DNA of 64,000 nucleotides from a virus, in IMG/VR virus record IMGVR_UViG_3300027917_000021, positions 1-64,000 of that record. The stretch is one strand, 5' to 3'. A model generated the notes under the pieces. The model saw only the letters and a list, made by a program, of their open reading frames with translations. It did no database searches and was not told the DNA's origin. Below are positions 4,232 through 20,108 of this stretch, in pieces. Position 1 is the first letter of the stretch; each line of letters starts with the position of its first letter. Made by a program: the position numbers and the translations under genes.

Positions 4232-4232
4232 G

Positions 4233-4310: not shown

Positions 4311-4314
4311 GTTG

Positions 4315-5027: not shown

Positions 5028-5039
5028 TTCCCCTCCCTT

Positions 5040-5393: not shown

Positions 5394-5423
5394 TATATGG
5401 TTTTTACCATTTACTATTTTTGG

Positions 5424-5666: not shown

Positions 5667-5687
5667 AACAATTCTCCTTCTGTTAAT

Positions 5688-5764
5688 TGGTAGGCCCGGA
5701 AGGACTTGAACCTATCACTATCTCGATTAAAAGTCGAGTGCTTTACCAGCTAAGCTACGGACCC
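5688..5764 (-). tRNA. tRNA-Lys(TTT), CCA encoded
   Basis: Cloverleaf, loop CT TTT AA. Confidence 0.95.
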
Positions 5765-5766
5765 AA

Positions 5767-5955
5767 TTACGTTTTTCTAGGTGCTTGATCCCCAAAATCT
5801 ACATCTTCCATGAATATGAATCTTCCATCTTCAAATTCTAAGGAAGTTCCAAAAAGCGTTATGCAGCTTTTTCTTTTGTCATAATGTCCAGTTTCATAGT
5901 CAACGCCATGCTTATCAAAAAATTCTTTGAACTCTTCAAATTCAGTTTTATCCAT
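5767..5955 (-). CDS. Hypothetical protein
   Basis: ORF immediately downstream of rtcB. Confidence 0.65.
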   Translation of the reverse strand: MDKTEFEEFKEFFDKHGVDYETGHYDKRKSCITLFGTSLEFEDGRFIFMEDVDFGDQAPRKT

Positions 5956-5959
5956 GAAA

Positions 5960-7129
5960 TTATCCCTTTATGTTTATAATTGGTTTAATGTGATGAATGA
6001 CTTCTACCAAGTCTTTTTGTTGTTCCATCACTTCAAAAATATTTTTATATGCGGCCGGCGATTCATCTATGGTAGCTGTCTCTACACGTGCCTTGATGCC
6101 ATTCATAGACTTCTTGAAATCTTCCATCTTCAGACTTTCTTTCGCTGCTCGGCGGCCAAGTACTCGTCCAGCCCCGTGTGAAGAGGAGTATAGAGATTCT
6201 GGATTACCTTTACCTTTTACAATAAAGGATCCATCACGCATATTGCCAGGAATTACTCCCATCATGTCTTTTTCTGCATGGGTGGCACCTTTACGATGTA
6301 TCCATAAGCCATCTTTTAATTCAGCATGATTATGGTTACGATTAATTAATCCATCCCAGTCTCCATGTCCTTTTGAATGGCGTTTAACTACTTTTTCCAC
6401 ACGACGGATCATTTCGGCACGGTTCAATAAAGCAAACTCTAAGGCATAATTAATGTCTGTGATGTAGTCTTGTCCGTTTTGAGAGTTTATGTCCAAAACA
6501 AAATATCCTTCTCGAGCTTTGCCATCTCCTGATGCTGCCTTCATATAATGAGTCGCTATATTGTGTCCAAAATTTCTGGATCCGGAATGGATGATTACCC
6601 ATATTTTTTCATCCTCATCATAGCCTATTTCAATAAAATGATTTCCTCCACCTAATGAACCAATTTGATATACTCCCTTCTCCGAGTAAATTTTTCCAAA
6701 ATGCTGAGTAATTGGCATCTGTTCCAGATGTTTGGTTGTATCAAAAGACACTCGTTTTTTATTCCAATCAAACCCAACTGGAATTACCTCGTATATTTCC
6801 TTGAAAATATTTTCTGTGGACGACTGTATTTGGTCTTTATGAAACGATGTAGGCAATGCACACATGCCACATCCAATATCATATCCTACAGCCGCCGGCC
6901 ATATAACATCTTTCATGGCAACAACTGCACCAATTGGAAGTGCATATCCAGTATGTGCGTCTGGCATTAGTGCGCCTTGTACTACTGTATCTTGCTTCAT
7001 TGCTTCATAAAATTGATCTAATGCTTGCCCTTCCACGTATTCGGCATAAATTTTATAAGGCTTATTTTTTGTAGATTTTACCTTTTCAGATATTTCTTTA
7101 TCTAAAAGATTGTCTTTCAATAGTGACAT
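5960..7129 (-). CDS. rtcB: RtcB-family RNA ligase
   Basis: MPDAHxGY, VGYDIGCGM, GGGNHFIE, HSGSR, HRKGAT, PGNM and HGAGR motifs. Confidence 0.97.
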   Translation of the reverse strand: MSLLKDNLLDKEISEKVKSTKNKPYKIYAEYVEGQALDQFYEAMKQDTVVQGALMPDAHTGYALPIGAVVAMKDVIWPAAVGYDIGCGMCALPTSFHKDQIQSSTENIFKEIYEVIPVGFDWNKKRVSFDTTKHLEQMPITQHFGKIYSEKGVYQIGSLGGGNHFIEIGYDEDEKIWVIIHSGSRNFGHNIATHYMKAASGDGKAREGYFVLDINSQNGQDYITDINYALEFALLNRAEMIRRVEKVVKRHSKGHGDWDGLINRNHNHAELKDGLWIHRKGATHAEKDMMGVIPGNMRDGSFIVKGKGNPESLYSSSHGAGRVLGRRAAKESLKMEDFKKSMNGIKARVETATIDESPAAYKNIFEVMEQQKDLVEVIHHIKPIINIKG

Positions 7130-7389
7130 TATATCTCCTTGAATTCTTTTATCATTTGTTCAAGTTTATCAGCATCATCTTGATTCATTGTCCAATTGCC
7201 AAAATACCCATAACGACTTTTATATCCAAATGTATATTTTATGGCCAACCACAGGCGCTGAAAAAAGTTTCTATGATTTCCAAGAAATACTGATACATAT
7301 ATTTCTTTTTCTTCTTTATCAAGTGTAAATCTTATTGTATGTTCATCATGTGCACAAATGCATTCAAAAAAATAAGAACCATCTAACAT
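7129..7389 (-). CDS. Hypothetical protein (start reassigned to MLDGSY; the track's extension lies in tRNAs)
   Basis: AGGAG RBS before ATG 7389; CxC motif. Confidence 0.7.
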   Translation of the reverse strand: MLDGSYFFECICAHDEHTIRFTLDKEEKEIYVSVFLGNHRNFFQRLWLAIKYTFGYKSRYGYFGNWTMNQDDADKLEQMIKEFKEI

Positions 7390-7409
7390 TTTTTTCTCCT
7401 GTTTTTTAG

Positions 7410-7482
7410 TGGAGAGTAAGAGGGTCGAACTCTTAACCTTCGCCGTGCAAGGGCGGTGCTCTCCCAATTGAGCTAACTCCCC
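7410..7482 (-). tRNA. tRNA-Ala(TGC)
   Basis: Cloverleaf, G3-U70. Confidence 0.95.
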
Positions 7483-7813
7483 ATGTGTGCGCCCTGAAAG
7501 ATTTGAACTTCCGATCTCCTGGATGTAAGCCAGGCGCCTTACCAACTTGACCAAGGGCGCTACCCCGCGAGAGACTCGAACTCCCGACACCCACGTCCGT
7601 AGCGTGGTGCTCTGATTCCAGCTGAGCTAGCGGGGCTTTAGATATTAAAATATATAAAAATATATCCCGGGTATATAGGCTAGTTCCTAATTGTATTCTA
7701 GGATATAATACTTGTTTGCCTATTAATTTTCTTCCATCATTGATTAGAAATACATCAACATCAATACTGCTAGTTGCTTCTATGTAAGGGTATTGTAATA
7801 TGTTTATTTCCAT
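7433..7813 (-). CDS. Small protein whose frame continues through tRNA-Arg, -Val and -Ala before a stop
   Basis: About 59 codons precede tRNA-Arg with no stop; overlaps the upstream ORF end. Confidence 0.55.
   Translation of the reverse strand: MEINILQYPYIEATSSIDVDVFLINDGRKLIGKQVLYPRIQLGTSLYTRDIFLYILISKAPLAQLESEHHATDVGVGSSSLSRGSALGQVGKAPGLHPGDRKFKSFRAHTWGVSSIGRAPPLHGEG
7488..7560 (-). tRNA. tRNA-Val(TAC)
   Basis: Cloverleaf, loop CT TAC AT. Confidence 0.93.
7561..7636 (-). tRNA. tRNA-Arg(ACG)
   Basis: Cloverleaf, loop CT ACG GA. Confidence 0.95.
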
Positions 7814-7998
7814 TTTGTATTTTCTATAACTATATAAATATTATGATTCCAAATAGTACTATCCGTACTTAATATAAGATTTCCTTTGTCATCGGGAATT
7901 ATGGCTGCTTTTGCTAAAATTGTGCAATCGCTGTATGATTTTGCGTTTCTTTCTCGTGTAGTAACCACAGAAGCTCTTTTAATTTTAAATCTTATCAT
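7804..7998 (-). CDS. Small hypothetical protein, ATG 2 nt after tRNA-Arg(TCT)
   Basis: ORF track and position. Confidence 0.65.
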   Translation of the reverse strand: MIRFKIKRASVVTTRERNAKSYSDCTILAKAAIIPDDKGNLILSTDSTIWNHNIYIVIENTKWK

Positions 7999-8000
7999 TG

Positions 8001-8074
8001 TACCCCTCCAGGAATTTGAATCCCGACCTTTGAAATTAGAAGTTTCATGCTCTATCCAGTTAAGCTAGAGGGGC
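8001..8074 (-). tRNA. tRNA-Arg(TCT)
   Basis: Cloverleaf, loop CT TCT AA. Confidence 0.95.
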
Positions 8075-8364
8075 TATTTCATATATTTATAATTTTTATT
8101 TTTAAAAAATTCTTTTGCCATGTCTATTACTTCTTCTAAAGACATATCTGTTCCAAGCTTTTCGTAAATTTCTGAATTGTCAACAAGTTTAGACCAATCT
8201 TCATCAAATTTCTTTAATTCTTTTTCATCCCATCCTTGAGATCCAAGATAAATTATTGTGACTTCTTCGGTTGCGCCTGATGCTGCCATATGAAAAATAA
8301 TATCGACCACCATAGATGCACTAATACGCAAAATAATATATTTGTCTGTGAACTTTACTTGCAT
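8074..8364 (-). CDS. Hypothetical protein (MQVKFTD...), related to 13703..13900
   Basis: AGGAG RBS; TAG stop shares its G with tRNA G1. Confidence 0.7.
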   Translation of the reverse strand: MQVKFTDKYIILRISASMVVDIIFHMAASGATEEVTIIYLGSQGWDEKELKKFDEDWSKLVDNSEIYEKLGTDMSLEEVIDMAKEFFKNKNYKYMK

Positions 8365-8380
8365 ATATTCTCCTTTTTTG

Positions 8381-8452
8381 CACGCCCACAAGGATTTGAA
8401 CCTCGAGTCTCGGATTTGGAGTCCGATGGTTTACCAATTAACCGATAGGCGC
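8381..8452 (-). tRNA. tRNA-Trp(CCA)
   Basis: Cloverleaf, loop CT CCA AA. Confidence 0.93.
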
Positions 8453-8641
8453 GTCTAAATCCCACTCTTCGTCAACTAAAAAAATATCTCCTGAAAACCA
8501 GAATGTGCCGCCTTGATTAACTCCTTTTTCGGCATATTGATTTTTGCCAATAAGAATTCCTTCTTGTTCTTCTTTAGGAGTTACGTCTGGTGTTCCTTTT
8601 AGAACTGGCCGGGATGCCACTATAATATTGATCGATTTCAT
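8438..8641 (-). CDS. Small hypothetical protein; stop inside tRNA-Trp
   Basis: GGAGG RBS; ends APIG* within the tRNA. Confidence 0.6.
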   Translation of the reverse strand: MKSINIIVASRPVLKGTPDVTPKEEQEGILIGKNQYAEKGVNQGGTFWFSGDIFLVDEEWDLDAPIG

Positions 8642-8819
8642 CTGTTAATATGACCTCCGTGTTGTATGTGGTTACAGTACAGTCGTGTGAAAATGTTACT
8701 ATAACTTCTCCTATTCTTTTTCCTTCCGGATAAGGTATCACGGTTTCTGCTTGTGTTGCACTATACCAATAAACTGGAGTTGTTATTACTTGTTTGTTAA
8801 TTAAATTTATATTTTTCAT
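8574..8819 (-). CDS. Small hypothetical protein, ATG 2 nt after tRNA-Glu
   Basis: ORF track and position. Confidence 0.6.
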   Translation of the reverse strand: MKNINLINKQVITTPVYWYSATQAETVIPYPEGKRIGEVIVTFSHDCTVTTYNTEVILTDEIDQYYSGIPASSKRNTRRNS

Positions 8820-8821
8820 AG

Positions 8822-8894
8822 TGGTCCCGGGGAGAATTGAACTCGCCGTTTTCTGGTTGAAAGCCAGATATCCTAACCATTAGATGACGGGACC
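8822..8894 (-). tRNA. tRNA-Glu(TTC)
   Basis: Cloverleaf, loop CT TTC AA. Confidence 0.95.
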
Positions 8895-9116
8895 TCTGGG
8901 TGCTTTTTTAATTTTTCTTTGTGGAAAAGGAAAAATAAAAAATACTGTAGCGTGTACTACATTTGAAGGCATTCCTTCGTAACCTTTAATATTTTTTGCT
9001 GTGATAATTTTACTTGCATTAAATTGGGTTGGGGAAGGATTTTGTGTTTTTAAATCAACCTGTATTGTTCCATTAAACATTCCCAAACCTGTACCTTTTA
9101 TTATATATGCTTTCAT
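8880..9116 (-). CDS. Small protein bounded by tRNA-His and tRNA-Glu
   Basis: ATG 2 nt after His; stop inside Glu. Confidence 0.6.
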   Translation of the reverse strand: MKAYIIKGTGLGMFNGTIQVDLKTQNPSPTQFNASKIITAKNIKGYEGMPSNVVHATVFFIFPFPQRKIKKAPRGPVI

Positions 9117-9118
9117 AG

Positions 9119-9194
9119 AGGGTCGTCAGGGAGTCGAACCCTACCTATACGAGCCACAATCGTACGTGCTTCTGCCCATATACACTACCGACCC
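9119..9194 (-). tRNA. tRNA-His(GTG)
   Basis: Loop TT GTG GC; atypical A-1/U73. Confidence 0.88.
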
Positions 9195-9421
9195 TTAAGT
9201 ACTCTTTTTAATTTTTTGCAGTCTATGCATATCTGCTCTTTCCTTCTAAATGTTTCAAATATTTCTCCACATGCTTTACATGCTTTGTCTCGCAAGCCTT
9301 CTGGCCTGTCATCAATCTCTGCAGTACATATATCTGTGCTGTCTGCTGTATCTGTTATTCTTATCCAGGTAGTTCCTGCTGTAGAAGTATCGCCTGTATA
9401 TTCTAATGTTGCAAATCCCAT
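9185..9421 (-). CDS. Small Zn-ribbon protein; stop inside tRNA-His
   Basis: CxxC...CxxC. Confidence 0.65.
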   Translation of the reverse strand: MGFATLEYTGDTSTAGTTWIRITDTADSTDICTAEIDDRPEGLRDKACKACGEIFETFRRKEQICIDCKKLKRVLKGR

Positions 9422-9447
9422 AAATTATTACCTTAATAAAACAAAAA

Positions 9448-9619
9448 TAGGGTGCTGTCCAGGTCGCTCATTTCTACGCCGTTGGTTAGTGCGGACTTAA
9501 AGCCAGTACGCGAGCCTCTAGCCGAACGTTATGACTAGAATATCTTCTCGATCACCAACATTATGTCTCTTTCTCTAGGAGTATTCTCACTACGAAATGC
9601 CCTCGATGCAGCACCTCTA
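9448..9619 (-). ncRNA. Unassigned structured RNA candidate (~170 nt)
   Basis: Closing stem GGTGCTG/CAGCACC; nested CATTTC/GAAATG and GTTGGT/ACCAAC. Confidence 0.5.
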
Positions 9620-9674
9620 ATTAAAGGGAGGATGTGCCGGCTGAGGACGCATTGCGTCCTCTATCCTCCCGTAG

Positions 9675-9748
9675 TAGCGCGGACGGGATTTGAACCCGTG
9701 ACCTGTTGGTTATGAGCCAACTGAGCTACCGGACTGCTCTACCGCGCG
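9675..9748 (-). tRNA. tRNA-Met(CAT), initiator-like body
   Basis: C1 mismatch, A11-U24 type D stem, loop CT CAT AA. Confidence 0.93.
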
Positions 9749-9754
9749 ATATAG

Positions 9755-9828
9755 TTGCGGGGGCGGGATTTGAACCCGCGACCTACAGGTTATGAGCCTG
9801 CCGAGCTACCAGACTGCTCCACCCCACA
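9755..9828 (-). tRNA. tRNA-Met(CAT)
   Basis: Cloverleaf, loop CT CAT AA. Confidence 0.93.
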
Positions 9829-9835
9829 TTAACCA

Positions 9836-10050
9836 TCATAATTTATTTTCTATAACCAGGATTCTGTATTTAACGTACGTTAAATGTCCGTGATTTATCT
9901 GTTGGCCCCTACCTTGTCATTATAGAGCTGCTCTCCCTCTAGACTATTTTGGGTCGCATCCTTGGTGGTATAATGGATATTCCTCCCACCGTGAGCAGCG
10001 ATGTCCTGAGTTTCCTCTCCGTAGAGCCACGAACCAAAAATAAATTATGA
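9836..10050 (-). ncRNA. rnpB: Minimal RNase P RNA
   Basis: CR-I GAGGAAACTCAGGAC, CR-IV AGATAAAT and CR-V ACAGAATCCTGGTTA with a complementary P4; P1 TCATAATTTATTTT/AAAATAAATTATGA. Confidence 0.88.
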
Positions 10051-11229
10051 AAATTTGTAAATAGTGCCTTCCGGAGACCTACTGATATAAACTTTTGATG
10101 TTTCCAGTACATGTGCTATCATCTCAACAAATTCTTTGAGGGTATCAAATTCATAATCAATATCACAATATGTAAGACAATATTTCTTTAAATTGTCAAC
10201 ACATGTTATTACCAATCTCCTATCAGCAACATTTTTTAATTTGTGAATATTAAAACTATATTCCAACAGTGATAAATCCAAAACTGTTTTTCTAAAATTT
10301 CCCTGCCATACATGCATTTTATTCTGCTCATATTTATTTTCCAGTATGAATTCATTGTTGTAGTGGTCCAGATTTGTCATTGGTCCGGTACCATGCCTAG
10401 TTTGATAAGCACGCGTAACTATCCAAACAGTAGGTTCTGCACTCTCTGGCAATGATATGTTTTTCATTCCTGTATTAGATCGTGTTACATGTGGAAAAAA
10501 TCCCAAATCTTGATCTAACAATAATCCTTGTGCACTTTCATAAATATAAGAATCAAAACCATCCGGAATATCTGTGCCTATATGTAGTCGCACGGCATAA
10601 TCATAGAAGTCTTCTCTTAATTCTTCACAAGCACCAAGAAATTTTTTCCAATCAGTTTTTTTGTTATAATATTTTTCCACCATACGAATTTTATACAACA
10701 AAATAGGTTCATAAAAAATATCTAGAAATTTAAAACTATAATGATCTTGTTCTCTTTTAATTGTAGTTCCGAATCCAACACCAACGCTTCCATGTTTAGT
10801 TATCAATTCCTGATTTTGATTAAATTCCTTATCAAGTGGAGTAGTAACCGGTGCATGAGAAGAAATAAATATTTCTGGGTCAATACCTTTCCCTATCAAA
10901 ATACCAAGTTCTTTTAGTAGTCCTTCTGGATCAACGGTGCAATGTTTACTCCAATAGGTGGGCACCCCGCGAAGAGTGCCCGAACCAAAATTGGAGAATA
11001 CATGTGATATTTTATTATGAATTACATGGTGCCCTGCTTGATGGCCACCATTAAAACGTATAACAAGAGGATTTTTCCTCTCACCGCTTAGCCAATCAAC
11101 TACTCTACCTTTTCCGTTATCCCCAAAACTTAAATCGAGGACAACATCATAAGATGACTTCTTCTTGAGGTTTTTCAACTTCCTCTTTAGGTTTTGTAGT
11201 ATCATCTGAAAATTTTCCTTGTTTGACAT
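10045..11229 (-). CDS. Adenylosuccinate synthetase-like protein (divergent PurA family)
   Basis: FGDNGKGRVVD, GGHQAGH, ESAQGLLLD, PHVTRS and TRHGTGP motifs; start uncertain. Confidence 0.85.
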   Translation of the reverse strand: MSNKENFQMILQNLKRKLKNLKKKSSYDVVLDLSFGDNGKGRVVDWLSGERKNPLVIRFNGGHQAGHHVIHNKISHVFSNFGSGTLRGVPTYWSKHCTVDPEGLLKELGILIGKGIDPEIFISSHAPVTTPLDKEFNQNQELITKHGSVGVGFGTTIKREQDHYSFKFLDIFYEPILLYKIRMVEKYYNKKTDWKKFLGACEELREDFYDYAVRLHIGTDIPDGFDSYIYESAQGLLLDQDLGFFPHVTRSNTGMKNISLPESAEPTVWIVTRAYQTRHGTGPMTNLDHYNNEFILENKYEQNKMHVWQGNFRKTVLDLSLLEYSFNIHKLKNVADRRLVITCVDNLKKYCLTYCDIDYEFDTLKEFVEMIAHVLETSKVYISRSPEGTIYKFS

Positions 11230-12046
11230 TTGAAAGAATTGTATCTCGAATTATTTTTGATACATCTTCATGTCTATCCGCAATGAACAATCGATCGCCC
11301 ATTAATTGTTTCCATCCATCAACTGTTTCTTTACGTGCTCCGGCTGCAGTTTCAGCAATATGAATATGAAAAACATCATACGTTTTCATTGCTTGTGCCA
11401 ATAGTTCATTTGCTGTTGTATCTGAATATTGCCCTGGACCCATGATACCTTCCAAGTGTCTTTTAGAAATAGACTCGAGTACCGGCTCGTCACCAATTGT
11501 GAATAGAAAGCCTTTTTGGCTACGCTTCTCAAAACAATCAATTGATGTATGTTTACTGGCAAAATACCATGCCAAATGATAGCTTTCGCCGACATTGCCT
11601 CCACCGCCGCCTTCTAAATAAACAGCAGTAAGCCATTTATCTAAAAGCTCATCACTTGATTCGAATTGTCCAACTTGTAATGGAGCACTATCGAAATTTG
11701 AATCTCCCACAGCCACAAACATAATTTGTGGGTCTGGAATTCCTGCCTGGATAATGCCTTCCATAATCTTTGGCAGGCCATCTTTAACCAGGAAATGTGG
11801 AACTGATCCCATGGAGCCGGTAACATCCAGACCTATAACAATAGCCAGGCTATTTGGATGTTCATCTGAATCCCGAGATTCTCTTACTGTTACACCATGA
11901 GGACTCATGGCATTATTTATAGAACGCTGTTTAAAAACGTTCTCTTTGTGGGATAAATACTCTTCAGTATCCTTATACCCTTCTGTTGTGGCCATGAACG
12001 CAATGCGTTCCGTGCGGGATTCGCTGGAATATCTTCCGCCACCCAT
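11147..12046 (-). CDS. vWA domain protein
   Basis: DVTGSMG MIDAS, GGGGN.GESY, TIGDE. Confidence 0.88.
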   Translation of the reverse strand: MGGGRYSSESRTERIAFMATTEGYKDTEEYLSHKENVFKQRSINNAMSPHGVTVRESRDSDEHPNSLAIVIGLDVTGSMGSVPHFLVKDGLPKIMEGIIQAGIPDPQIMFVAVGDSNFDSAPLQVGQFESSDELLDKWLTAVYLEGGGGGNVGESYHLAWYFASKHTSIDCFEKRSQKGFLFTIGDEPVLESISKRHLEGIMGPGQYSDTTANELLAQAMKTYDVFHIHIAETAAGARKETVDGWKQLMGDRLFIADRHEDVSKIIRDTILSNVKQGKFSDDTTKPKEEVEKPQEEVIL

Positions 12047-12435
12047 TAAGTCACCTCGCCTTCCAATTCACCAACTGGTATGTTTCCCGGTTTTTTTGAG
12101 GAATCAACGAATTGATATTCGTATTCCTGTTTAGCTAACATAAGGCGAATTTTTTCGTTCCTGATTTTCATAGCCAGCTCCAGATTTTTTTCAACGTATG
12201 CTGCTGCGTCAAAATCTGAAGGAACTTTAAGGCTCAATGCATTATCAGGAGATAAATCAAGCATATTCTCTTTATCTCTTAGGAGTTGCTTAATTTTCAC
12301 CTCAATGTCTTCCACCTTACGTTTATATAAAAGCTCGGCGGACTCGACCAGTGCTTCTGCACGGTCTTTTCGAATACCTTGATTGGTTCTCGTTAGAGAC
12401 TCAACAAAGGCTCCTTTAGCTTGTTGATTAGCCAT
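12046..12435 (-). CDS. Coiled-coil hypothetical protein
   Basis: Heptad-rich; TAATG coupling to the vWA gene. Confidence 0.75.
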   Translation of the reverse strand: MANQQAKGAFVESLTRTNQGIRKDRAEALVESAELLYKRKVEDIEVKIKQLLRDKENMLDLSPDNALSLKVPSDFDAAAYVEKNLELAMKIRNEKIRLMLAKQEYEYQFVDSSKKPGNIPVGELEGEVT

Positions 12436-12451
12436 TTTCTTTCCTCTCTGT

Positions 12452-12643
12452 TTAATGGTTTAATTTGCTATTTACCATAGCTTTATAATATAGATGTTTT
12501 TGATTTTCCAAAAAATTGTCTAAAGCATGAAGCTTAGTTTCTAATGCACAAATCCACGCATATGTGTTAATGGGATCCTTAGATGCATTTAAATTCTTTT
12601 CTATTATTTTTAATTCTTTTAAATATTCACTTAAATTGACCAT
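12452..12643 (-). CDS. Hypothetical protein
   Basis: ORF 7 nt after a GGAATAAGAA motif. Confidence 0.55.
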   Translation of the reverse strand: MVNLSEYLKELKIIEKNLNASKDPINTYAWICALETKLHALDNFLENQKHLYYKAMVNSKLNH

Positions 12644-12667
12644 ATTTACTTTCTTATTCCATATTTG

Positions 12668-12753
12668 CGGTAGGAGAAGGATTCGAACCTTCGTGCCCCG
12701 TAGGACGACGGTTTAGCAAACCGTTGCAATTAGCCTGACTCTGCCATCCTACC
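12668..12753 (-). tRNA. tRNA-Ser(GCT)
   Basis: Long variable arm, loop TT GCT AA, G73. Confidence 0.93.
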
Positions 12754-12957
12754 TATTCCTGGTAAAAAATGGTCTATAATTGTAGTACCATCTATTTTTA
12801 CTTCCCGAACCCGAACCATTCCAGTACCTGTTCTGCCTAAAATCACACTTGGCAGTTCAATATTAGTAGTAGCACTGTGCCCGTGTATTCCGTTTTCTTC
12901 ATGGCTCATTCTTATCCATGTCAATGTTTGACCATCAATTAAATTTATTTTTCTCAT
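12730..12957 (-). CDS. Small protein; stop inside tRNA-Ser
   Basis: GGAGG RBS; ends GRMAESG* within the tRNA. Confidence 0.65.
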   Translation of the reverse strand: MRKINLIDGQTLTWIRMSHEENGIHGHSATTNIELPSVILGRTGTGMVRVREVKIDGTTIIDHFLPGIGRMAESG

Positions 12958-12970
12958 AGTCCTCCTTTTG

Positions 12971-13044
12971 TGGGGACAGTTGGAGTTGAACCAACGACCA
13001 GAAAATTTTCAGTTTTCCACTCTACCACACTGAGTTACATCCCC
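12971..13044 (-). tRNA. tRNA-Phe(GAA)
   Basis: Cloverleaf, loop CT GAA AA. Confidence 0.93.
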
Positions 13045-13632
13045 ATTACGTCTACAGAAAGTTGATTGTTGGCTATTACAATTTGGACAAAGTAATCTTA
13101 AATTTTTTATTCTGTAATCATCATTTTTACCATTTATATGGTCCAGTATTAGAACAAGTGGCTTTTCATTCCAAATAGGTTTTAATTTACAGATATTACA
13201 TTCATTATTTAAAAGATTTTTTTCTACCAACCTTTTCTTTAACCGTGTATTATTTTTATATGACGAATTATCAACCAATATTTCTTCTAAAGTTTTTCTT
13301 ACTACTTCCCCAGTTCTTCCGTGTGCTTTGCCCAAAAAATGATCTGTAGATATTTTTAATTTTTTTATATGGCGATTCAACGTGTCATAATTACCAGGTC
13401 TCGAACTTAACCCCAATTTTCGTAAAACCTCTGCTTTAGAAATACTAGTTTTAATTGCTTCTTTTAGATCAGTGTCGCTCCAGGTTCTTTGACCAGATCG
13501 TCTATATTGAGTTTTCAATCCATATTTATCTAACCAATACTTTGCAGATGTATACGATATTTGTTCTTTTGCTGCTATGTTTCTTATAGATAATCCAGCT
13601 TCTATATACTTAATTAAATTTTGTTTTTTCAT
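13009..13632 (-). CDS. HNH homing endonuclease
   Basis: CxxC...LDHING...NLRLLCPNCNSQ; N-terminal HTH-like region. Confidence 0.92.
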   Translation of the reverse strand: MKKQNLIKYIEAGLSIRNIAAKEQISYTSAKYWLDKYGLKTQYRRSGQRTWSDTDLKEAIKTSISKAEVLRKLGLSSRPGNYDTLNRHIKKLKISTDHFLGKAHGRTGEVVRKTLEEILVDNSSYKNNTRLKKRLVEKNLLNNECNICKLKPIWNEKPLVLILDHINGKNDDYRIKNLRLLCPNCNSQQSTFCRRNGDVTQCGRVEN

Positions 13633-13637
13633 ACTAT

Positions 13638-13666
13638 AATATACTAAAATTATTACAGTATGTCAA
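13638..13666 (-). promoter_or_regulatory. sigma70-type promoter, leaderless HNH transcript
   Basis: TTGACA-17-TATATT, ATG 5 nt downstream. Confidence 0.75.
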
Positions 13667-13668
13667 TA

Positions 13669-13698
13669 GTTCGCTCTACCAACTGAGCTACAGTCCCC
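13669..13698 (-). pseudogene. Orphan tRNA 5' half
   Basis: GGGGACTGTAGCTCAGTTGGTAGAGCG ends abruptly at the HNH promoter. Confidence 0.8.
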
Positions 13699-13702
13699 TT
13701 AA

Positions 13703-13900
13703 TTATTCTTTTGGTCTATTATGTTTATGATATTCTTTTAAAGTCCATCCTAATGATCTAAGCCTTTTATCTGCTAATTCTAACATTTCTTTTTCGGACA
13801 TGTATGATGCTAATCCTTCATTGATGACTTTCATCATGAGTTCATCAACTTCTTTTAATCCTGCTCTTATAAAGTAGCAGTCTGTGAATTTAACTTCCAT
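13703..13900 (-). CDS. Small protein (MEVKFTD...), ATG 2 nt after tRNA-Leu
   Basis: Related to 8074..8364 (VKFTD, LxSxGW). Confidence 0.7.
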   Translation of the reverse strand: MEVKFTDCYFIRAGLKEVDELMMKVINEGLASYMSEKEMLELADKRLRSLGWTLKEYHKHNRPKE

Positions 13901-13902
13901 AG

Positions 13903-13987
13903 TAGGAGCGGAGGGACTTGAACCCCCACGGTATTTCTACCACTAGATCCTAAGTCTAGCGCGCCTGCCAAATTTCGCCACGCTCCC
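13903..13987 (-). tRNA. tRNA-Leu(TAG)
   Basis: Long variable arm, loop CT TAG GA. Confidence 0.95.
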
Positions 13988-13998
13988 ATTTAGGACAG

Positions 13999-14202
13999 CT
14001 ATGCTGTCCTAATATGTTTATATTGTGTTTTACGTTTTTGTTTCCAGGATCTTTTAGGATACCTGCTTATTCCCACTCCTGAATTGCAGCCTTTGCCTAG
14101 TGGACATATAGGACATAATCCACCAAGCAGCACGTAATACCTTGCTGCGCGATATATTCTATTGTTTGTTGTTGTATGTAGAATTTGATAAGCTTTGTGC
14201 AT
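13999..14202 (-). CDS. Small basic Cys-containing protein
   Basis: CPICP...GCN, RSWK...RKTQY. Confidence 0.6.
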   Translation of the reverse strand: MHKAYQILHTTTNNRIYRAARYYVLLGGLCPICPLGKGCNSGVGISRYPKRSWKQKRKTQYKHIRTA

Positions 14203-14632
14203 AGTTTACAGGCCATATATAAGGTAAATTATTAGGTTCTGTCCAATCATATTGAGAATAGAAAGAAAAATCTTTTCTTAATAGATTGGATCTATGACTC
14301 GCATGAAAATTTTCATCCCCTAACCAATGTGGAAGATGTATGACATCTGCTATGATAAAACGTGGCATATTATTTTTATATCCTTTAAGTATCCATGTAT
14401 CTACTACGACATTATAATATTTCGTAAGAGCGTCCTCATATCCTTCCCACATTAAAACAGCTGGATGGTTTATCCACCCCTTAGGTACATTTTTGTCTCC
14501 TTTTTGAATAGCTTTTCTTCTTTCTAGGACATTCAAAATTTGATATGCCTCTACTCGCTGTTTTCCAAGCCTTCTGTAATCTAATATTTTTGCACTTACA
14601 TTAAAATCCGGATAAGGTAAAAAAGTTTGCAT
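14159..14632 (-). CDS. Pyrimidine-dimer DNA glycosylase superfamily protein (MSMEG_6728-like)
   Basis: MQTFLPYPDF, LDxRRLGKQRVE, HPAVLMWxGY, HxSHRSNLLRKD. Confidence 0.88.
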   Translation of the reverse strand: MQTFLPYPDFNVSAKILDYRRLGKQRVEAYQILNVLERRKAIQKGDKNVPKGWINHPAVLMWEGYEDALTKYYNVVVDTWILKGYKNNMPRFIIADVIHLPHWLGDENFHASHRSNLLRKDFSFYSQYDWTEPNNLPYIWPVNYAQSLSNSTYNNKQ

Positions 14633-14635
14633 AAT

Positions 14636-14857
14636 TTATCTGGGTTTATAAGCACGTATAAACTCAAAACGTCCACTTCTCATAGGAGGCCCTCCTGGAT
14701 ATGCGTGCTTTATTTGTTTATTGAAAAATAAACTCATAGAAAAATCTTGGGTTTCCCATTTTTTCTTCAATTTTTCTAAAGCTTCGGTGACTTTAACTTT
14801 ATCAGTTATTTCATCGAATACTGTTTCTTGTGTAACGTGAACTATACGTTTTTTCAT
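14636..14857 (-). CDS. Small protein, ATG 2 nt after tRNA-Leu(CAA)
   Basis: Start reassigned to ATG 14857. Confidence 0.6.
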   Translation of the reverse strand: MKKRIVHVTQETVFDEITDKVKVTEALEKLKKKWETQDFSMSLFFNKQIKHAYPGGPPMRSGRFEFIRAYKPR

Positions 14858-14859
14858 TG

Positions 14860-14945
14860 TAGGCAAGGTAGGGTTTGAACCTACACCCCATCACGGTGGG
14901 ACTAGAGTTTGAACCTAGCGCGTCTTCCAATTCCGCCACTTGCCC
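14860..14945 (-). tRNA. tRNA-Leu(CAA)
   Basis: Long variable arm, loop TT CAA AC. Confidence 0.93.
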
Positions 14946-15163
14946 TAAGCATCGAAAAAGATTTTTAATATTATAGATGCTATTTCATTTGATTTTTTAA
15001 GTGAAAGATCACTATTATCTTTTATAGCCATGGCTAAATTAGCTCTCCAGCCTACATGATATCCTTTATCTGTTTTTAGTGCTTTTCCTAATGTGTCCAT
15101 TGCGTCTTCGATATGGTTCTTTTTTACAAGAACTTCTTTTCTTACAAATTTTACTTTTTTCAT
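14945..15163 (-). CDS. Small protein bounded by two tRNA-Leu genes
   Basis: ATG 2 nt after Leu(TAA); TAG shares its G with Leu(CAA) G1; GWxANLAMA motif. Confidence 0.7.
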   Translation of the reverse strand: MKKVKFVRKEVLVKKNHIEDAMDTLGKALKTDKGYHVGWRANLAMAIKDNSDLSLKKSNEIASIILKIFFDA

Positions 15164-15165
15164 AG

Positions 15166-15249
15166 TAGGGATGGAAGGGGTCGAACCTTCACGATATTTC
15201 TATCACGGAATTTTAGGTCCCGCGCGCCTGCCGATTACGCCACATCCCC
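15166..15249 (-). tRNA. tRNA-Leu(TAA)
   Basis: Long variable arm, loop CC TAA AA (C33). Confidence 0.9.
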
Positions 15250-15256
15250 AAAAAAA

Positions 15257-15421
15257 AGAGGTAGTTATCAGCTATAAGCATTAGTCTTATGTGGCCGGAA
15301 ACATTTGAGTTCTGCTCGGGTTAGCCTATTATGTTCGAGCCTTTAGCTACCAGAATGTTCACATAACCATCATTTCCCCTGCCAGGTAGGAATACCAAAC
15401 ACTATTATTGTAACTACCTCT
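15257..15421 (-). ncRNA. Unassigned structured RNA candidate (~165 nt)
   Basis: Perfect 11-bp closing stem AGAGGTAGTTA/TAACTACCTCT; nested stems. Confidence 0.55.
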
Positions 15422-15431
15422 CTCCCACTAC

Positions 15432-15956
15432 TTACCGGCCAAAATTGACCAGAGCAGCAGGAATATCAATATCTACTTTTGTCGCATTGGCAAGTGCAAC
15501 AGTCTGTCGTATATCCGCTGCATGTTTATTGGCAGCATTACGAACTTTTGTCGCATCTTCTTTGGCAATACTTCTTTTTGCATGTACCTCATCTTTATTA
15601 CGTACACGATCATATGTATCACCCCACCCACGGCGTGATGTTTCTTTGTCAACAGTAAGTATTTTCCATGTAGACGCAAAACGGCTAGCCATGCCAATTG
15701 CCTTAATCGCATATGCTAAAGTTTTTTCTTCTCCAGCAATTTCTACTTTGACATAAAGATTGTATCTTTGCTGTGCTTCTTCAAGTTTAGCTACAGCATC
15801 TTCTGCTTTTTTATAATCCTCTGCAACTACTATAGGATCCACTTTATCATTATCATCAAAATAGTAAAGTGAATTTTTCAAATCAGTTGCAGCTCCATCT
15901 AGCACTGTACGCCAATGACGTAGTGCTTCTCTTAACTGATATCCAGTTACTTTCAT
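15432..15956 (-). CDS. Long helical protein, possibly DIP1984/septicolysin-like
   Basis: LxEAL N-terminus, QxxN..V.V...TLAxAI, IRxxVALANATxV C-terminus. Confidence 0.6.
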   Translation of the reverse strand: MKVTGYQLREALRHWRTVLDGAATDLKNSLYYFDDNDKVDPIVVAEDYKKAEDAVAKLEEAQQRYNLYVKVEIAGEEKTLAYAIKAIGMASRFASTWKILTVDKETSRRGWGDTYDRVRNKDEVHAKRSIAKEDATKVRNAANKHAADIRQTVALANATKVDIDIPAALVNFGR

Positions 15957-16150
15957 TGTTTTCCTTCCGTTAAAATTATTTCTTTTGGTAATACTTGGCT
16001 ACGAACAAATACCCAGCTTAAATGATTTTCTCTGGCTGTTAATATCCAACCTGAGCCTGAGCCTTCATCCATAGATCTAGGAATTACCTGACTACTATCA
16101 ACACTTTTTATAATTAGTTGATTTCTAGAATGTACTTTTATTTGCTTCAT
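15953..16150 (-). CDS. Small protein, ATG 2 nt after tRNA-Ser(TGA)
   Basis: ATGA coupling to the downstream gene. Confidence 0.65.
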   Translation of the reverse strand: MKQIKVHSRNQLIIKSVDSSQVIPRSMDEGSGSGWILTARENHLSWVFVRSQVLPKEIILTEGKQ

Positions 16151-16152
16151 AG

Positions 16153-16244
16153 AGGTGGGTTAGAGATTCGAACTCTAAAACCGCTTTTCAACGGCCACGC
16201 TGTTTTCAAGACAGGTCCCCGCGCCAAATGAGGTCAGACCCACC
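16153..16244 (-). tRNA. tRNA-Ser(TGA), atypical D arm and U73
   Basis: Loop CT TGA AA, long variable arm. Confidence 0.85.
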
Positions 16245-16327
16245 TAGTTGGCGAGAGCTTTATAAACATTAACTCATAATCACTATCTACTCTCGCTTAG
16301 AGTAGTGAATAGACCTAATGCCATAAG

Positions 16328-16403
16328 CGGGGCATAACGGATTTGAACCGATGGTCTCCTGCGTGACAGGCAGGCGCTTTAAGCCAAGCTAAGCTAATAC
16401 CCC
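16328..16403 (-). tRNA. tRNA-Asp(GTC)
   Basis: Cloverleaf, loop CT GTC AC. Confidence 0.95.
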
Positions 16404-16409
16404 GTTTTT

Positions 16410-16832
16410 TTATTTTTGATACTCATAGATTTCAAATGCCGAATTCTTTATAAATGATTTATATGGTAAATGTACAACTCTCTGTGAATATGTTTTATAA
16501 TGTATGTCTTCCTTGATATCTCGACGTACTGTAAAATACGCTTTTCCATTTTTTGTTAATAATTTATTTATGTGCTTGATTATCTTTTCTTGTTCTTCTT
16601 CTGTTACAACACATAATATGTAATTACAAATTATGACATCATATTTACCTGTTGGTGTAATGTTGTGCCAGTGTGGATCATATCGTTCCAAATTATTTAT
16701 AAATTGGTAATCTATTGATTTTCCACATCCATAATCAAGCATTCTTTTCCCAGTCAATACTCCATAAACTAATAGCATTGCTGTTGGACTAGATATTTTT
16801 TTTCTCACTATTGCAGTTCGCGCGTTTGACAA
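16410..16832 (-). CDS. Class I SAM-dependent methyltransferase
   Basis: RTAIxR..SxP, LDYGCGK, YDP, YDVIICNYIL, AYFTVRRD. Confidence 0.85.
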   Translation of the reverse strand: MSNARTAIVRKKISSPTAMLLVYGVLTGKRMLDYGCGKSIDYQFINNLERYDPHWHNITPTGKYDVIICNYILCVVTEEEQEKIIKHINKLLTKNGKAYFTVRRDIKEDIHYKTYSQRVVHLPYKSFIKNSAFEIYEYQK

Positions 16833-16992
16833 GATCTTTCATGGTTAAATCATATATTCCTATATGATTAATGTATTCATATTTTGTGCCTTGTTCTGTC
16901 GTATAAAATAAAACCTGTTTAAACAGCCCAAGGACTTCTAAATCAGTACTCCACGTAGTGCTTAGTACTGATGGATATGTTCTCACTATCAT
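16789..16992 (-). CDS. Small protein, ATG 2 nt after tRNA(CAT)
   Basis: Start reassigned to MIVRTY. Confidence 0.6.
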   Translation of the reverse strand: MIVRTYPSVLSTTWSTDLEVLGLFKQVLFYTTEQGTKYEYINHIGIYDLTMKDLVKRANCNSEKKNI

Positions 16993-16994
16993 AG

Positions 16995-17067
16995 TTGGCC
17001 CAACAGGGCTTGAACCTGTGACCGGTGCATTATGAGTGCACTGCTCTACCAACTGAGCTATGGGCCA
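16995..17067 (-). tRNA. tRNA(CAT), probably Ile2 (lysidine type) or elongator Met
   Basis: GGCCCA acceptor, loop CT CAT AA. Confidence 0.9.
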
Positions 17068-17080
17068 TAATAAAACATAG

Positions 17081-17153
17081 TGGTACCGCCTGGACTTGAA
17101 CCAGGGACCATTCGGATATCAGCCGAATGCTCCACCAACTGAGCTACGGTACC
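17081..17153 (-). tRNA. tRNA-Ile(GAT)
   Basis: Cloverleaf, loop CT GAT AT. Confidence 0.93.
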
Positions 17154-17162
17154 GCCGGACAA

Positions 17163-17543
17163 TTACTTGTCCAGTTTGCACAGATATTTCTCAAAATCCG
17201 TTGGCGTGGCTTCCAGGTCAATTTTTTTAACTTCTGGTGCTTCGAACAGATCCTCATAGTTTCTGTTTTCATTCCGGTCGTTACCAAATAGACGATCCAT
17301 AATATCATCTGCACGACGAGGAAATATTTCATTTATATATCCTTCACGTGACATGATTTTAACCGCATTATCAAAACGGGCATTGACCATCTTGAAGCCT
17401 TGCTTTTTGTTTAGAGGATGAATCTCACCTTCTCCATAAACGGAAATAGTACGAGCAAACTTCACCCCATTTTCATTTGAGAAAACACCTACTGTTACGA
17501 TAGGGTGGTTACCCTCATCATACAGGTAATATACACGTCTCAT
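17163..17543 (-). CDS. Hypothetical protein
   Basis: ORF with RBS, ATGA coupling. Confidence 0.7.
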   Translation of the reverse strand: MRRVYYLYDEGNHPIVTVGVFSNENGVKFARTISVYGEGEIHPLNKKQGFKMVNARFDNAVKIMSREGYINEIFPRRADDIMDRLFGNDRNENRNYEDLFEAPEVKKIDLEATPTDFEKYLCKLDK

Positions 17544-17788
17544 GACGGGTCTCCTTCTTTAATGGTTTCTTCCAGTTCTTCCATTATTTCTTGTTGTAAT
17601 CTTTCAAAGGCATAATCTGGAACCTTATGCCCTGCTTTTATATGCTCCACTAAGTGATTTAATGCATCAAGCCTAGTTTTAAATATATCTTTACCATATT
17701 TATCAAAACCACACCAACAACACTGGAAGCCTTCACCGGTGGCCAAAAAATAAATGTCGCTGTCTTCACCAAATCTACAATATGACAT
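17540..17788 (-). CDS. Conserved phage hypothetical protein
   Basis: MSYCRF..DSD.Y, CCxC, HLxEHxxAGHxVP; GGAGG RBS. Confidence 0.75.
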   Translation of the reverse strand: MSYCRFGEDSDIYFLATGEGFQCCWCGFDKYGKDIFKTRLDALNHLVEHIKAGHKVPDYAFERLQQEIMEELEETIKEGDPS

Positions 17789-17949
17789 TTTATTAACAAC
17801 CTCCTATAAAATGATTTTCTTTTATATCAGTAAAATCGGTGAATAGTTTATTTTGATATAAGTAAATAGTACAAAATAATACATCATTTCTTGTCATATC
17901 ATGATATATTTCTGTTACAGCGTTCGCTGTCATAATTTTTATTTTCACG

Positions 17950-18022
17950 CTGGGGCGGAAGGGCTCGAACCTCCGACATTCGGGTCCAAGGCCCGACGTT
18001 CCACCAACTGAACTACACCCCA
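17950..18022 (-). tRNA. tRNA-Gln(TTG)
   Basis: U1-A72, loop CC TTG GA (C33). Confidence 0.9.
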
Positions 18023-18023
18023 G

Positions 18024-18473
18024 TTAGTCTATCATTAAAGGTACTACGTTCTCATACCAATATGATTGATTACCTATTTTATTTTTTCTTATTTCAGGAT
18101 GTTCATGAAATATTTTAAGAATTAATTTGGATCTTTCTTTGCTTTCTTCCACATCAAAGCCCTGATAATCATCTCCTACCATCATCCATTTATGATGATA
18201 TATGGGGCCAGTATCATTACGATACCAGAGTTGTCTTAAATCTGTCCACACCATTTGAATAGCCGGCTCTGCATGCCCATCAAAATTAAAGCAGCTAATA
18301 ACAGATGTATGCTGAAGAGTCATATCATATTTTAGTATATCCATGCCAGGCATGTCTTTACCATCCATTCGTAATGCTCTGGTTATATAAAGCCAGTCTG
18401 GTATGTCCCAATGATCTATATAATCTTTATGAATGTAAAGATTATTTCTTACAATTTTTCCTGGTTTTCTCAT
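18024..18473 (-). CDS. Hypothetical protein resembling the non-catalytic domain of phosphorothioation-associated methyltransferases
   Basis: GKxVxxxLYIH, FDxxxEP, PIYHHKW motifs. Confidence 0.6.
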   Translation of the reverse strand: MRKPGKIVRNNLYIHKDYIDHWDIPDWLYITRALRMDGKDMPGMDILKYDMTLQHTSVISCFNFDGHAEPAIQMVWTDLRQLWYRNDTGPIYHHKWMMVGDDYQGFDVEESKERSKLILKIFHEHPEIRKNKIGNQSYWYENVVPLMID

Positions 18474-18656
18474 AATTAATGACGGTAGTCGCGCGGATTA
18501 CGTGCCAAAATTCACCAATATTGGCGCTTTCGTAGCACAACGCGCTTTCCCGCCCATTTTTTGCAAATACATTTCGGATTACGCACTCACCCGGATGAAC
18601 CCGGTAATCACCAACGTCAGAAGTCAGTTAACGGAGTACAACGTTTTCTAAGCAAG

Positions 18657-18729
18657 CTCACGAGGAAGGAATCGAACCTACAACCGTTGCCTTAACAGGG
18701 CACAGCTCTGCCTATTGAGCTACTCGTGA
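18657..18729 (-). tRNA. tRNA-Asn(GTT)
   Basis: Cloverleaf, loop CT GTT AA, G73. Confidence 0.93.
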
Positions 18730-19509: not shown

Positions 19510-20108
19510 TGGAGCTGCCGGTCAAATGTTTTAAAAGATCCTCCTTCTGTTTCCAGTAGGTATCGGACTATCTCTTCATCTTCTATTTCTATTTAGAAGA
19601 GTTGGACGCTCTTGCTGGTAATTAAGAGGATTTACCTCTCCAGTAGTCTCTGCACCTTATGAAGATTTATCTTCATCTTGGCTCAGGGTTGCCATATACA
19701 CTGTACTTAGGTTTCCCTGAATTCATCCAATTTAATCGAAAAGTTCACACTTTAAGTCGACATTTTTTGAAATATCGAAACCGGGTCCGAACATATACAT
19801 TAAATTATTCTTTTACATTCATATCCGTTTAGGTATCATAAGCGTTGGCATGCTCTGCAAACGGATAAGGCCTGCATGCTCGCCTGATCTCCTTGATTTA
19901 AGCTCACTGACGGATCAGTCCAGATCGCCGAGTCAAACATTTACGACCATTGCATGCCGTGACATAACATGCTAGTCGTGGCTGTTAAGCAGCCATGCGG
20001 TATGTATTGCCAGTTATTCTGACAGTTGTAACTTGTTCTACGGCCATGTTACAGTAACGCCGGAATGAAATAATTTAACTTTTACATCCGTCGAATCCAT
20101 TCAGCCCC
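19510..20108 (-). ncRNA. ssrA: tmRNA (intron-interrupted); tag (A)GNTYRMAA*
   Basis: 5' GGGGCTGAATGGATTCGAC; 3' CAGCTCCA with G3-U70; ATAACT|GGC resume context; tag frame 20011-19985. Confidence 0.95.
19523..19773 (-). mobile_element. Group I intron (IC3-like, no ORF) in the tmRNA T loop
   Basis: P AATTCAGGGAAAC, Q AACCCTGAGCCAAG, R GTGCAGAGACTA, S AAGAGATAGTCC; P1 TCGATAT/ATGTCGA with U-G at the 5' splice site; terminal G. Confidence 0.92.

Follow-up and report, generated by a model that had tools for sequence, protein, structure and literature searches.

As reportedly described by Ojala, Montoya and Attardi in 1981, the transcripts of animal mitochondria are punctuated by transfer RNAs (tRNAs). 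Mitochondrial tRNA punctuation has also been reviewed (PMC4394434). In this study, we examine an array of tRNA genes and small open reading frames (ORFs) in the first 64 kb (positions 1 to 64,000; the window) of an uncultured viral contig of 155,895 bp and 35.5% G+C (IMG/VR record IMGVR_UViG_3300027917_000021). Several of these ORFs begin flush with the 3' end of a tRNA, and several stop inside the next one. As in mitochondria, genes and tRNAs lie on one strand and 0-2 nucleotides (nt) separate the tRNA 3' end from the AUG, so that tRNA excision would give leaderless mRNAs; two of the phage stops are, moreover, a TA completed by the next base. Unlike mitochondria, the carrier is a bacterial virus that would need the RNase P and a 3' nuclease of its host, cleavage being predicted here from sequence. 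Only about a third of the phage tRNAs are so used, the same genes alternate with versions led by a Shine-Dalgarno (SD) motif, and the stops are mostly complete codons within the tRNA that are apparently used before cleavage.

Transfer RNA-like RNAs known as t-elements set mRNA ends in plant mitochondria and Haloferax. They resemble the phage array in that cleavage of a tRNA-shaped RNA by RNase P and tRNase Z sets the end of the neighbouring mRNA, which in Haloferax would be leaderless, but they are tRNA mimics at single loci, whereas the phage uses genuine decoding tRNAs repeatedly in one array. The Haloferax tRNA-like elements are mentioned in PMC4946936. Leaderless mRNAs as such are known from bacteria and phages, including lambda cI and those of Mycobacterium and Deinococcus (PMC4633059, PMC4007540, PMC9031893). 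The flush phage genes share with them the exclusive use of AUG, the lack of an SD motif and unstructured, A-rich coding starts. The difference lies in the 5' end, which in known bacterial leaderless mRNAs comes from transcription initiation; in the phage it would come from processing and would carry a 5' monophosphate and maybe one or two extra nucleotides.

Among phages, T5 (NC_005859) likewise has about 24 tRNAs on a single strand, with small ORFs and HNH genes scattered among them, and four of its annotated coding sequences (CDS) end 6-24 nt into the next tRNA. In contrast to the array described here, the T5 tRNAs encode CCA, and each T5 gene that follows a tRNA starts 14-37 nt past it with a conventional leader, so that flush junctions are lacking. 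In Salmonella phage Arash (OQ632216), the annotated CDS gp91c starts with CC-ATG after tRNA-Thr in the same register, with tRNA position 76 (A76) serving as the A of the ATG, but it stands alone among 25 CCA-encoding tRNAs, and the arrangement is not systematic. Literature searches found no published description of phage tRNA punctuation or of phage mRNAs made leaderless by processing.

The array contains 27 tRNA genes, all on the minus strand within 2031-18729 and called concordantly by ARAGORN and Rfam, with small minus-strand ORFs interleaved among them head to tail (Table 1). ARAGORN 3' ends take in C74, one base past the discriminator, and the discriminator (N73) was set from the Rfam ends. 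Read on the minus strand, all eight ATGs that a preliminary description of this DNA had placed exactly 2 nt past the discriminator (N73-C-T/A-ATG) are found there, at 7998 (Arg-tct), 8819 (Glu), 9116 (His), 13900 (Leu-tag), 14857 (Leu-caa), 15163 (Leu-taa), 16150 (Ser-tga) and 16992 (Met-cat). The A of each flush ATG is tRNA position 76. A ninth C-T-ATG, at 17078 after tRNA-Ile, opens only six codons and is probably a remnant junction. ATG at offset 2 follows 9 of the 27 window tRNAs, against an ATG frequency of 0.0235 on the strand (binomial p = 7e-9), and where the trailer reads C-W-A (W, A or T), TG comes next in 9/17 cases versus an expected 0.068 (p = 5e-7). Eight of the nine offset-2 ATGs open 64-81 codons; about 20% of the ATGs in the region open at least 55. 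The flush ORFs at 14857 and 16992 start at internal ATGs of longer TTG-started ORFs, whose extensions fall within tRNA. The near-variants reported along with the exact junctions are also present, namely Cys C-ATT-ATG (distance from N73, d=4; a conserved 119-aa ORF), Asp C-TT-ATG (a 13-codon ORF) and Gln C-GTG (an uncertain start).

Searches with RtcB, a conserved 174-aa protein and one small ORF yielded five related contigs with the same tRNA order: G001 (169 kb, from IMG/VR, recorded as 85% complete), L013, L017 (a 2-kb close relative), L030 and L032. Exact tRNA words returned from IMG/VR only G001 and an unrelated CCA-encoding lineage, G002-G004. No match was obtained by megablast of the region against cultured phages, and the best cultured match of the large terminase was that of Arash, at 30% identity. 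Five unrelated tRNA-rich phage loci with 129 tRNAs served as controls, namely T5, Arash, mycobacteriophage I3 and the IMG/VR contigs G002 and G004, which were chance finds.

For the 111 tRNAs of five clade genomes, distances were counted from N73 to the ATG of any following ORF with 50 or more codons. Of 72 genes that follow tRNAs in these genomes, orthologous junctions that are not independent samples being included, 37 start at 1-2 nt (34 at d=2 and three at d=1), one at 3-12 nt and 34 at 13 nt or more. The corresponding numbers for 38 control genes are 1, 3 and 34 (Fisher test against the clade, p = 4e-8). As the pile-up is absent from the controls, it is a property of the clade and not of phage compaction in general; flush starts make up 37/72 in the clade versus 1/38 in the controls. 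ATG occupies offset 2 after 9/27, 9/27 and 10/24 tRNAs in three genomes (p = 7e-9 to 7e-11). The array looks like a conserved operon arrangement that one clade of uncultured phages shares, with about a third of the tRNAs flush with a gene.

The tRNAs of the window and G001 are 70-90% identical. Orthologues of the small ORFs are 38-83% identical as proteins in alignments that run from residue 1, and the ratio of nonsynonymous to synonymous substitution rates (dN/dS) is 0.2-0.7 in nine orthologous pairs, the tenth not being estimable on account of saturated dS. Because of these residue-1 alignments and ratios, the flush ORFs are, on comparative grounds, genuine genes under purifying selection. 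Scans of ten small ORFs against Pfam and PHROGs gave no family, except for a weak zinc-ribbon match of 9188-9421. The notion that the ATG is a tRNA 3'-processing or other nucleic-acid signal, with the ORFs untranslated, might draw on two short spacers between tRNAs that also contain C-T-ATG (Ile-Met in the window, Leu-tag-Phe in L013). We regard it as extremely improbable: both spacers look like deletion remnants, 37 of some 41 such ATGs open at least 50 codons as compared to about 20% of random ATGs opening at least 55, and the ORFs are intact over 57-85% nucleotide identity with dN/dS < 1.

The flush junctions were said to leave no room for a ribosome-binding site (RBS). This holds for seven of the eight window ORFs, whose preceding 20 nt, the acceptor and T arms of the tRNA, contain no SD-like motif; the exception is the ORF after Arg-tct, where GGAGG is present. 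An SD concealed in the tRNA 3' arm was rejected as a general explanation, being true only of Arg-tct, and so was a promoter within the tRNA from which transcription would begin at the ATG, as inspection by eye showed no suitable -10 box in the acceptor arm. Flush starts are ATG in 24/24 cases in three genomes, and in 37/37 in the wider count, where this holds by construction. The second codon is AAA in 17 of 24 flush ORFs versus 18% genome-wide. The junction consensus is N73-C-U(82%)-AUG-AAA; as a start motif in the whole genome, C-W-ATGAA was not specific. The first 40 nt of flush ORFs are as unstructured as those of SD-led ORFs (-1.6 versus -1.9 kcal/mol), random windows standing at -4.4 kcal/mol.

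From the aligned junctions, orthologous genes alternate between two discrete states, flush and SD-led. The gene after Leu-tag begins with C-T-ATG in the window, L017 and L032 and lies 14 nt downstream behind AGGAG in G001 and L030. The gene after His is flush in the window and stands 17 nt downstream behind GGAGG in G001 and L013, and behind GGAGA in L032. After Cys, d is 4 in the window, 16 in G001 and 2 in L013, and the junction after Leu-taa is C-T-ATG, CC-ATG (G001) or C-ATG (L030), depending on the genome. Genes at least 13 nt past a tRNA mostly have AGGAG, with an SD-like motif found in only about half of the long ORFs genome-wide. With genes either flush or at least 13 nt away behind a strong SD, the distribution has two sharply separated states and amounts to a clean natural experiment on what bacterial ribosomes need beside structured RNA. 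In a separate observation, one flush ORF (MK(T/A)KIVEAETVV...; relative positions 23135-23390 in G001, 9214-9480 in L013) follows an extra tRNA-Val in G001 and tRNA-Arg(acg) in L013 and L030, and keeps its C-T-ATG junction while the preceding tRNA differs. This swap suggests recombination or deletion between tRNA 3' ends.

Near-leaderless mRNAs made by processing are the simplest joint account of four features of the flush starts: the register is exact, the 3-12-nt zone is empty, an SD is lacking beside a folded tRNA and the alternate state of the same genes has a strong SD. We give a probability of about 0.5 to this reading, in which 3' processing of CCA-less tRNAs would release such mRNAs. 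Endonucleolytic 3' maturation would cut at or within 1-2 nt of N73, through RNase Z-type cleavage of precursors that lack CCA and receive it afterwards from the host, and would free an mRNA with its AUG 0-2 nt from the 5' end, to be translated by the ribosome in leaderless mode. The predicted leader is 2 nt for a cut after N73, 1 nt after C74 and 0 nt after W75. The proposal that tRNA maturation yields near-leaderless mRNAs, made in the preliminary description, survives on its start side, which fits all tests run: fixed register, no SD, ATG-only starts with AAA second, unstructured starts, alternation with SD-led versions, CCA-less tRNAs and absence in unrelated phages. Its stop side, the removal of stop codons and tagging by transfer-messenger RNA (tmRNA), is contradicted by data given below.

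RNase Z cuts CCA-less precursors directly after the discriminator, and CC or CCA trailers suppress it (PMC7479834). In actinobacteria, endonucleolytic cuts have been mapped within or just past the tRNA 3' end, followed by CCA repair (PMC3848588, PMC4681348). The clade tRNA genes are CCA-less, with CCA encoded in 9/111, C74 in 106/111 and C-W-A in 74/111. CCA is encoded in nearly every tRNA of T5, Arash, G002 and G004, which have no flush genes except for the one CC-ATG in Arash. Phage I3 is CCA-less yet without flush genes, and lack of CCA is therefore not sufficient. A search for a phage-encoded CCA-adding enzyme (class II; PF01743) found none, which implies host processing.

At the other end of the genes, the eight ORFs said to lack a complete stop before the next tRNA do so, each stop lying where it had been placed, and two ORFs (8880..9116 and 14945..15163) combine this with a flush start. 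Set against mitochondrial-type punctuation, the array shows the abutting of genes and tRNAs, with eight starts at 2 nt in the window, 37/72 at 1-2 nt in the clade and eight ORFs that reach or cross the first tRNA base (G1). Completion of stops of the mitochondrial type is not seen: the only incomplete stops are two TA|G cases, both of which are a full TAG on the precursor. Over five genomes, 29 of 31 ORFs that read into a tRNA stop within its first 24 nt, versus 47% of all tRNA-by-frame combinations (p = 4e-8), and over three genomes 17 of 24 use the frame with the earliest stop (p = 2e-4); these counts include orthologues and represent about 13 independent loci, so that the true significance is lower and the direction clear. 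The L013 orthologues of the ORFs that precede His and Glu terminate ahead of the tRNA, each at a TAA of its own (2 and 6 nt away, respectively). The stops in tRNAs look borrowed and read on unprocessed RNA, since the frame of entry would be irrelevant were the stops removed first. By this pattern they look like ordinary stop codons that the gene takes from its neighbour.

The opposite possibility is that RNase P, by cutting at G1, deliberately removes the stops, with the phage tmRNA then tagging the small proteins and making them unstable, so coupling their turnover to tRNA maturation. The eight window ORFs without a stop before G1 and the tmRNAs carried by the window phage and G001 are in its favour, as is ORF 7433-7813, which has no early in-frame stop. 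We nevertheless find it improbable, and the corresponding claim of the preliminary description is contradicted by the bias toward early in-tRNA stops, by the L013 orthologues that end before the tRNA and by similar gene/tRNA overlaps, mostly of HNH genes, in the T5 and Arash annotations. The read-in ORFs are also conserved across relatives, and tmRNAs are common in tRNA-rich phages, such as I3. The one ORF that departs from the early-stop rule, 7433-7813, could be spurious or could be a true non-stop case.

Where both features meet at one tRNA, the two ends might be mechanistically joined: a ribosome that ends the upstream ORF in the 5' half of a tRNA would melt the acceptor stem and expose the AUG at the 3' end. 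His, Glu, Leu-caa and Arg-tct in the window show both features. Such translational coupling is very improbable, however, in that upstream read-in ORFs are missing for half of the flush genes (in the window, those after Met-cat, Ser-tga, Leu-taa and Leu-tag; 5/8 in G001), and several read-in tRNAs, among them Trp and Phe, precede SD-led genes; there is no association between the two features.

For the starts, the main alternative, which we consider unlikely, is maximal packing of genes against the C-W-A unit with a one-base overlap at A76, the SD-less genes initiating on uncut, tRNA-linked RNA. In that case the acceptor/T-arm helix may be tolerated at, or dock into, the site of the SD helix. 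Consistently, A76 is enriched even where no ATG follows (48/72 versus a base rate of 35%), the A76 of the CC-ATG junctions in G001 and Arash is part of a real CCA, the stop-frame result indicates translation of precursors, and about half of the long ORFs of the phage have no SD-like motif anyway. Packing predicts a decaying spread of distances, however, and not peaks at d=2 and beyond 12 nt with a single gene between; with C74 as the sole invariant base, the limit would be d=1 and not d=2. Furthermore, an AUG that has a 7-bp acceptor stem only 3 nt away makes a poor 30S site, the more distant genes compensate with a strong AGGAG, and other compact tRNA-rich phages lack the pile-up.

Release of near-leaderless mRNAs by tRNA 3' processing has its own difficulties, of which the presence of orthologous junctions in the distance count is one. 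At the CC-ATG junctions in G001 (Leu-taa) and Arash (Thr), the start codon would lose its A to any tRNA that retains the encoded CCA. Extra 5' nucleotides reportedly reduce leaderless translation in E. coli, a result attributed to Krishnan et al. in 2010, and a cut after N73 leaves two. The stop-frame bias points to ribosomes that translate unprocessed precursors, and processing would not necessarily be faster than initiation. The near-universal C74 may itself slow RNase Z, and CC trailers, as at the CC-ATG junctions, suppress this enzyme (PMC7479834).

If near-leaderless mRNAs do arise by processing, the stop codons in the next tRNA would be borrowed stops read on the still-unprocessed transcript, and the non-stop mRNAs made by RNase P would be a by-product and not a designed tagging device; such non-stop fragments may be cleared by tmRNA. 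A tmRNA had been reported for this phage and is borne out by Rfam (RF00023, 57.1 bits versus a cut-off of 47, at 19772-20101; tag frame ...GNTYRMAA-stop); that of G001 is uninterrupted and scores 91.8 bits. The reported phage RNase P RNA stands as an RNase P RNA-like element whose score for RF00010 (bacterial RNase P RNA class A) is below the gathering score of 100. It has blastn homologues of 74-79% identity in G001 and L013 (74% in G001), neither of which Rfam scores; Rfam found no RNase P RNA in G001, a relative that has flush junctions. Neither the RNase P-like RNA nor the tmRNA is specifically tied to the junctions.

As a tentative overall picture, held less firmly than the release of near-leaderless mRNAs itself, the phage tRNAs may act as punctuation: host 3' maturation would turn one long transcript into leaderless mRNAs, a dozen small early proteins would be set by tRNA processing and not by RBSs, genes would toggle to an SD-led mode, and by-product non-stop messages would be cleared by the phage tmRNA. 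If true, this would be a bacterial-world counterpart of mitochondrial tRNA punctuation and a new route to leaderless mRNAs, through processing instead of the transcription start. It would account for the frequent small ORFs between phage tRNAs and allow compact, RBS-free expression of several genes from one transcript. Gene calling would improve as well, RBS-less starts being easily mis-called (2/8 here are masked by longer TTG ORFs).

Table 1. Features of the tRNA array and its surroundings in the window. Stop positions are tRNA positions.
Feature	Coordinates	Strand	Stop codon	Remarks
ORF, 59 codons ahead of tRNA-Arg(acg), lacking an early in-frame stop	7433..7813	-	TAA in Ala, after read-through of Arg-acg and Val (204 nt)	no homologue
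64-aa ORF, flush after tRNA-Arg(tct)	7804..7998	-		GGAGG in acceptor arm; no homologue in relatives
tRNA-Arg(tct), CCA-less	8001..8074	-		trailer A73-C-A, then ATG
96-aa SD-led ORF (AGGAG), 16 nt past tRNA-Trp	8074..8364	-	TAG, G shared with G1 of Arg-tct
67-aa ORF	8438..8641	-	TAA, Trp 13-15	read-in kept in relatives at positions 15-21
81-aa ORF, flush after tRNA-Glu	8574..8819	-
tRNA-Glu	8822..8894	-		TAA of upstream ORF at 8882-8880 (positions 13-15); C-T-ATG 3' of it
78-aa ORF, flush after tRNA-His	8880..9116	-	TAA, Glu 13-15
tRNA-His	9119..9194	-		TAG of ORF 9185-9421 at 9187-9185 (positions 8-10); C-T-ATG 3' of it
78-aa zinc-ribbon-like ORF	9185..9421	-	TAG, His 8-10	read-in kept in G001
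Reduced RNase P RNA-like element, 209 nt, directly upstream of tRNA-Met	9837..10045	-		46.1 bits, E = 1e-11, model positions 1-367
75-aa SD-led ORF	12730..12957	-	TAA, Ser-gct 22-24	positional counterparts in relatives stop at positions 5 or 22
207-aa HNH endonuclease ORF	13009..13632	-	TGA, Phe 34-36	tRNA-Phe at 12970-13044
65-aa ORF, flush after tRNA-Leu(tag)	13703..13900	-
tRNA-Leu(tag)	13903..13987	-		then C-T-ATG
73-aa ORF, flush after tRNA-Leu(caa)	14636..14857	-		conserved and flush in all five relatives
tRNA-Leu(caa)	14860..14945	-		G1 completes TAG of upstream ORF; C-A-ATG 3' of it
72-aa ORF, flush after tRNA-Leu(taa)	14945..15163	-	TAG, G shared with G1 of Leu-caa
tRNA-Leu(taa)	15166..15249	-		then C-T-ATG
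65-aa ORF, flush after tRNA-Ser(tga)	15953..16150	-		conserved in G001, L030 (junction C-A-ATG)
tRNA-Ser(tga)	16153..16244	-		then C-T-ATG
67-aa ORF, flush after tRNA-Met(cat)	16789..16992	-		conserved and flush in G001, L013, L030
tRNA-Met(cat)	16995..17067	-		then C-T-ATG
tRNA-Ile (17081-17153), C-T-ATG and 6-codon ORF ending within tRNA-Met	17058..17153	-
tmRNA	19543..20108	-		group I intron (94.3 bits) in T-loop; Rfam

With a genome of 155,895 bp the phage is not a jumbo phage, as it had been called. Its tRNAs and ORFs share one strand, and neither promoters nor terminators are enriched there (70 sigma-70-like promoters versus 67.9 expected, 13 terminators versus 12.4), the promoter scan being of a sigma-70 type that phage-specific promoters could escape; no promoter of the Bacteroidota type was found on the minus strand of the array. 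No complementarity between tRNA leaders and trailers was seen. Two ORF-free stretches of the array, 9422-9673 and 15250-15431 (both minus strand), fold into long closed structures of -75.5 and -45.7 kcal/mol and match no Rfam family. The structure at 15250-15431 has a 16-bp closing stem and a U-run at its end, directly before tRNA-Leu(taa), and only 28 nt of it are kept in relatives. A perfect 10-bp palindromic hairpin at 13990-14012, 2 nt upstream of tRNA-Leu(tag) and kept in L017, may be a processing or termination signal.

The array also carries genes for an RtcB ligase, a PurA/PurZ-like protein, a DenV-like glycosylase, a methyltransferase and an HNH endonuclease. The PurA/PurZ-like gene, an adenylosuccinate synthetase homologue at 10045-11229 (minus strand), has phage matches annotated as PurZ of the 2-aminoadenine pathway (rhizobiophages and cluster C mycobacteriophages), and from this homology the phage may carry a modified adenine. 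In or beside the array lie a Ro60-like vWA/DUF2828 protein (224-1606), the RtcB RNA ligase (5960-7129) and a sub-threshold YrlA-like RNA (9-119, minus strand), a combination that suggests a phage module for RNA repair or quality control.

Four weak leads point to a Bacteroidota host, perhaps of the Saprospiraceae: a terminase with 85% identity from a 2.9-kb contig that was binned into a Saprospiraceae metagenome-assembled genome (MAG), a homologue named from a Saprospiraceae MAG, a gene with Por_Secre_tail (the type IX secretion sorting domain) on a relative's contig, and promoter-like TTTG-N17-21-TAnnTTTG sites (9 versus 3.3 expected). Among L019, P0015 and the P0005 contig, two contigs of relatives fall into Saprospiraceae MAG bins, and the contig of a relative has the sorting-domain gene. 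Bacteroidota-type motifs (TTTG ... TATATTTG) stand 4-5 nt before the ATGAAA of two long ORFs of 224 and 287 codons, at 36676-36714 (plus strand; ORF start region at 36700) in the window and at 98283-98298 (plus strand) of the genome, and the former shares CTATGAAA context with the tRNA junctions. The phage may thereby also have leaderless genes made by transcription, for which these sites are suggestive only.

The HNH gene has a near-consensus promoter, TTGACA-17-TATATT at 13666-13638. On one side of it lie 26 nt left over from the 5' half of a tRNA-Phe (about 13672-13697), on the other a complete but different tRNA-Phe (12970-13044), and L017 has an uninterrupted, ancestral tRNA-Phe and no HNH gene. 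From this arrangement, 12970-13698 (minus strand) looks like a mobile cassette of an HNH gene and a replacement tRNA.

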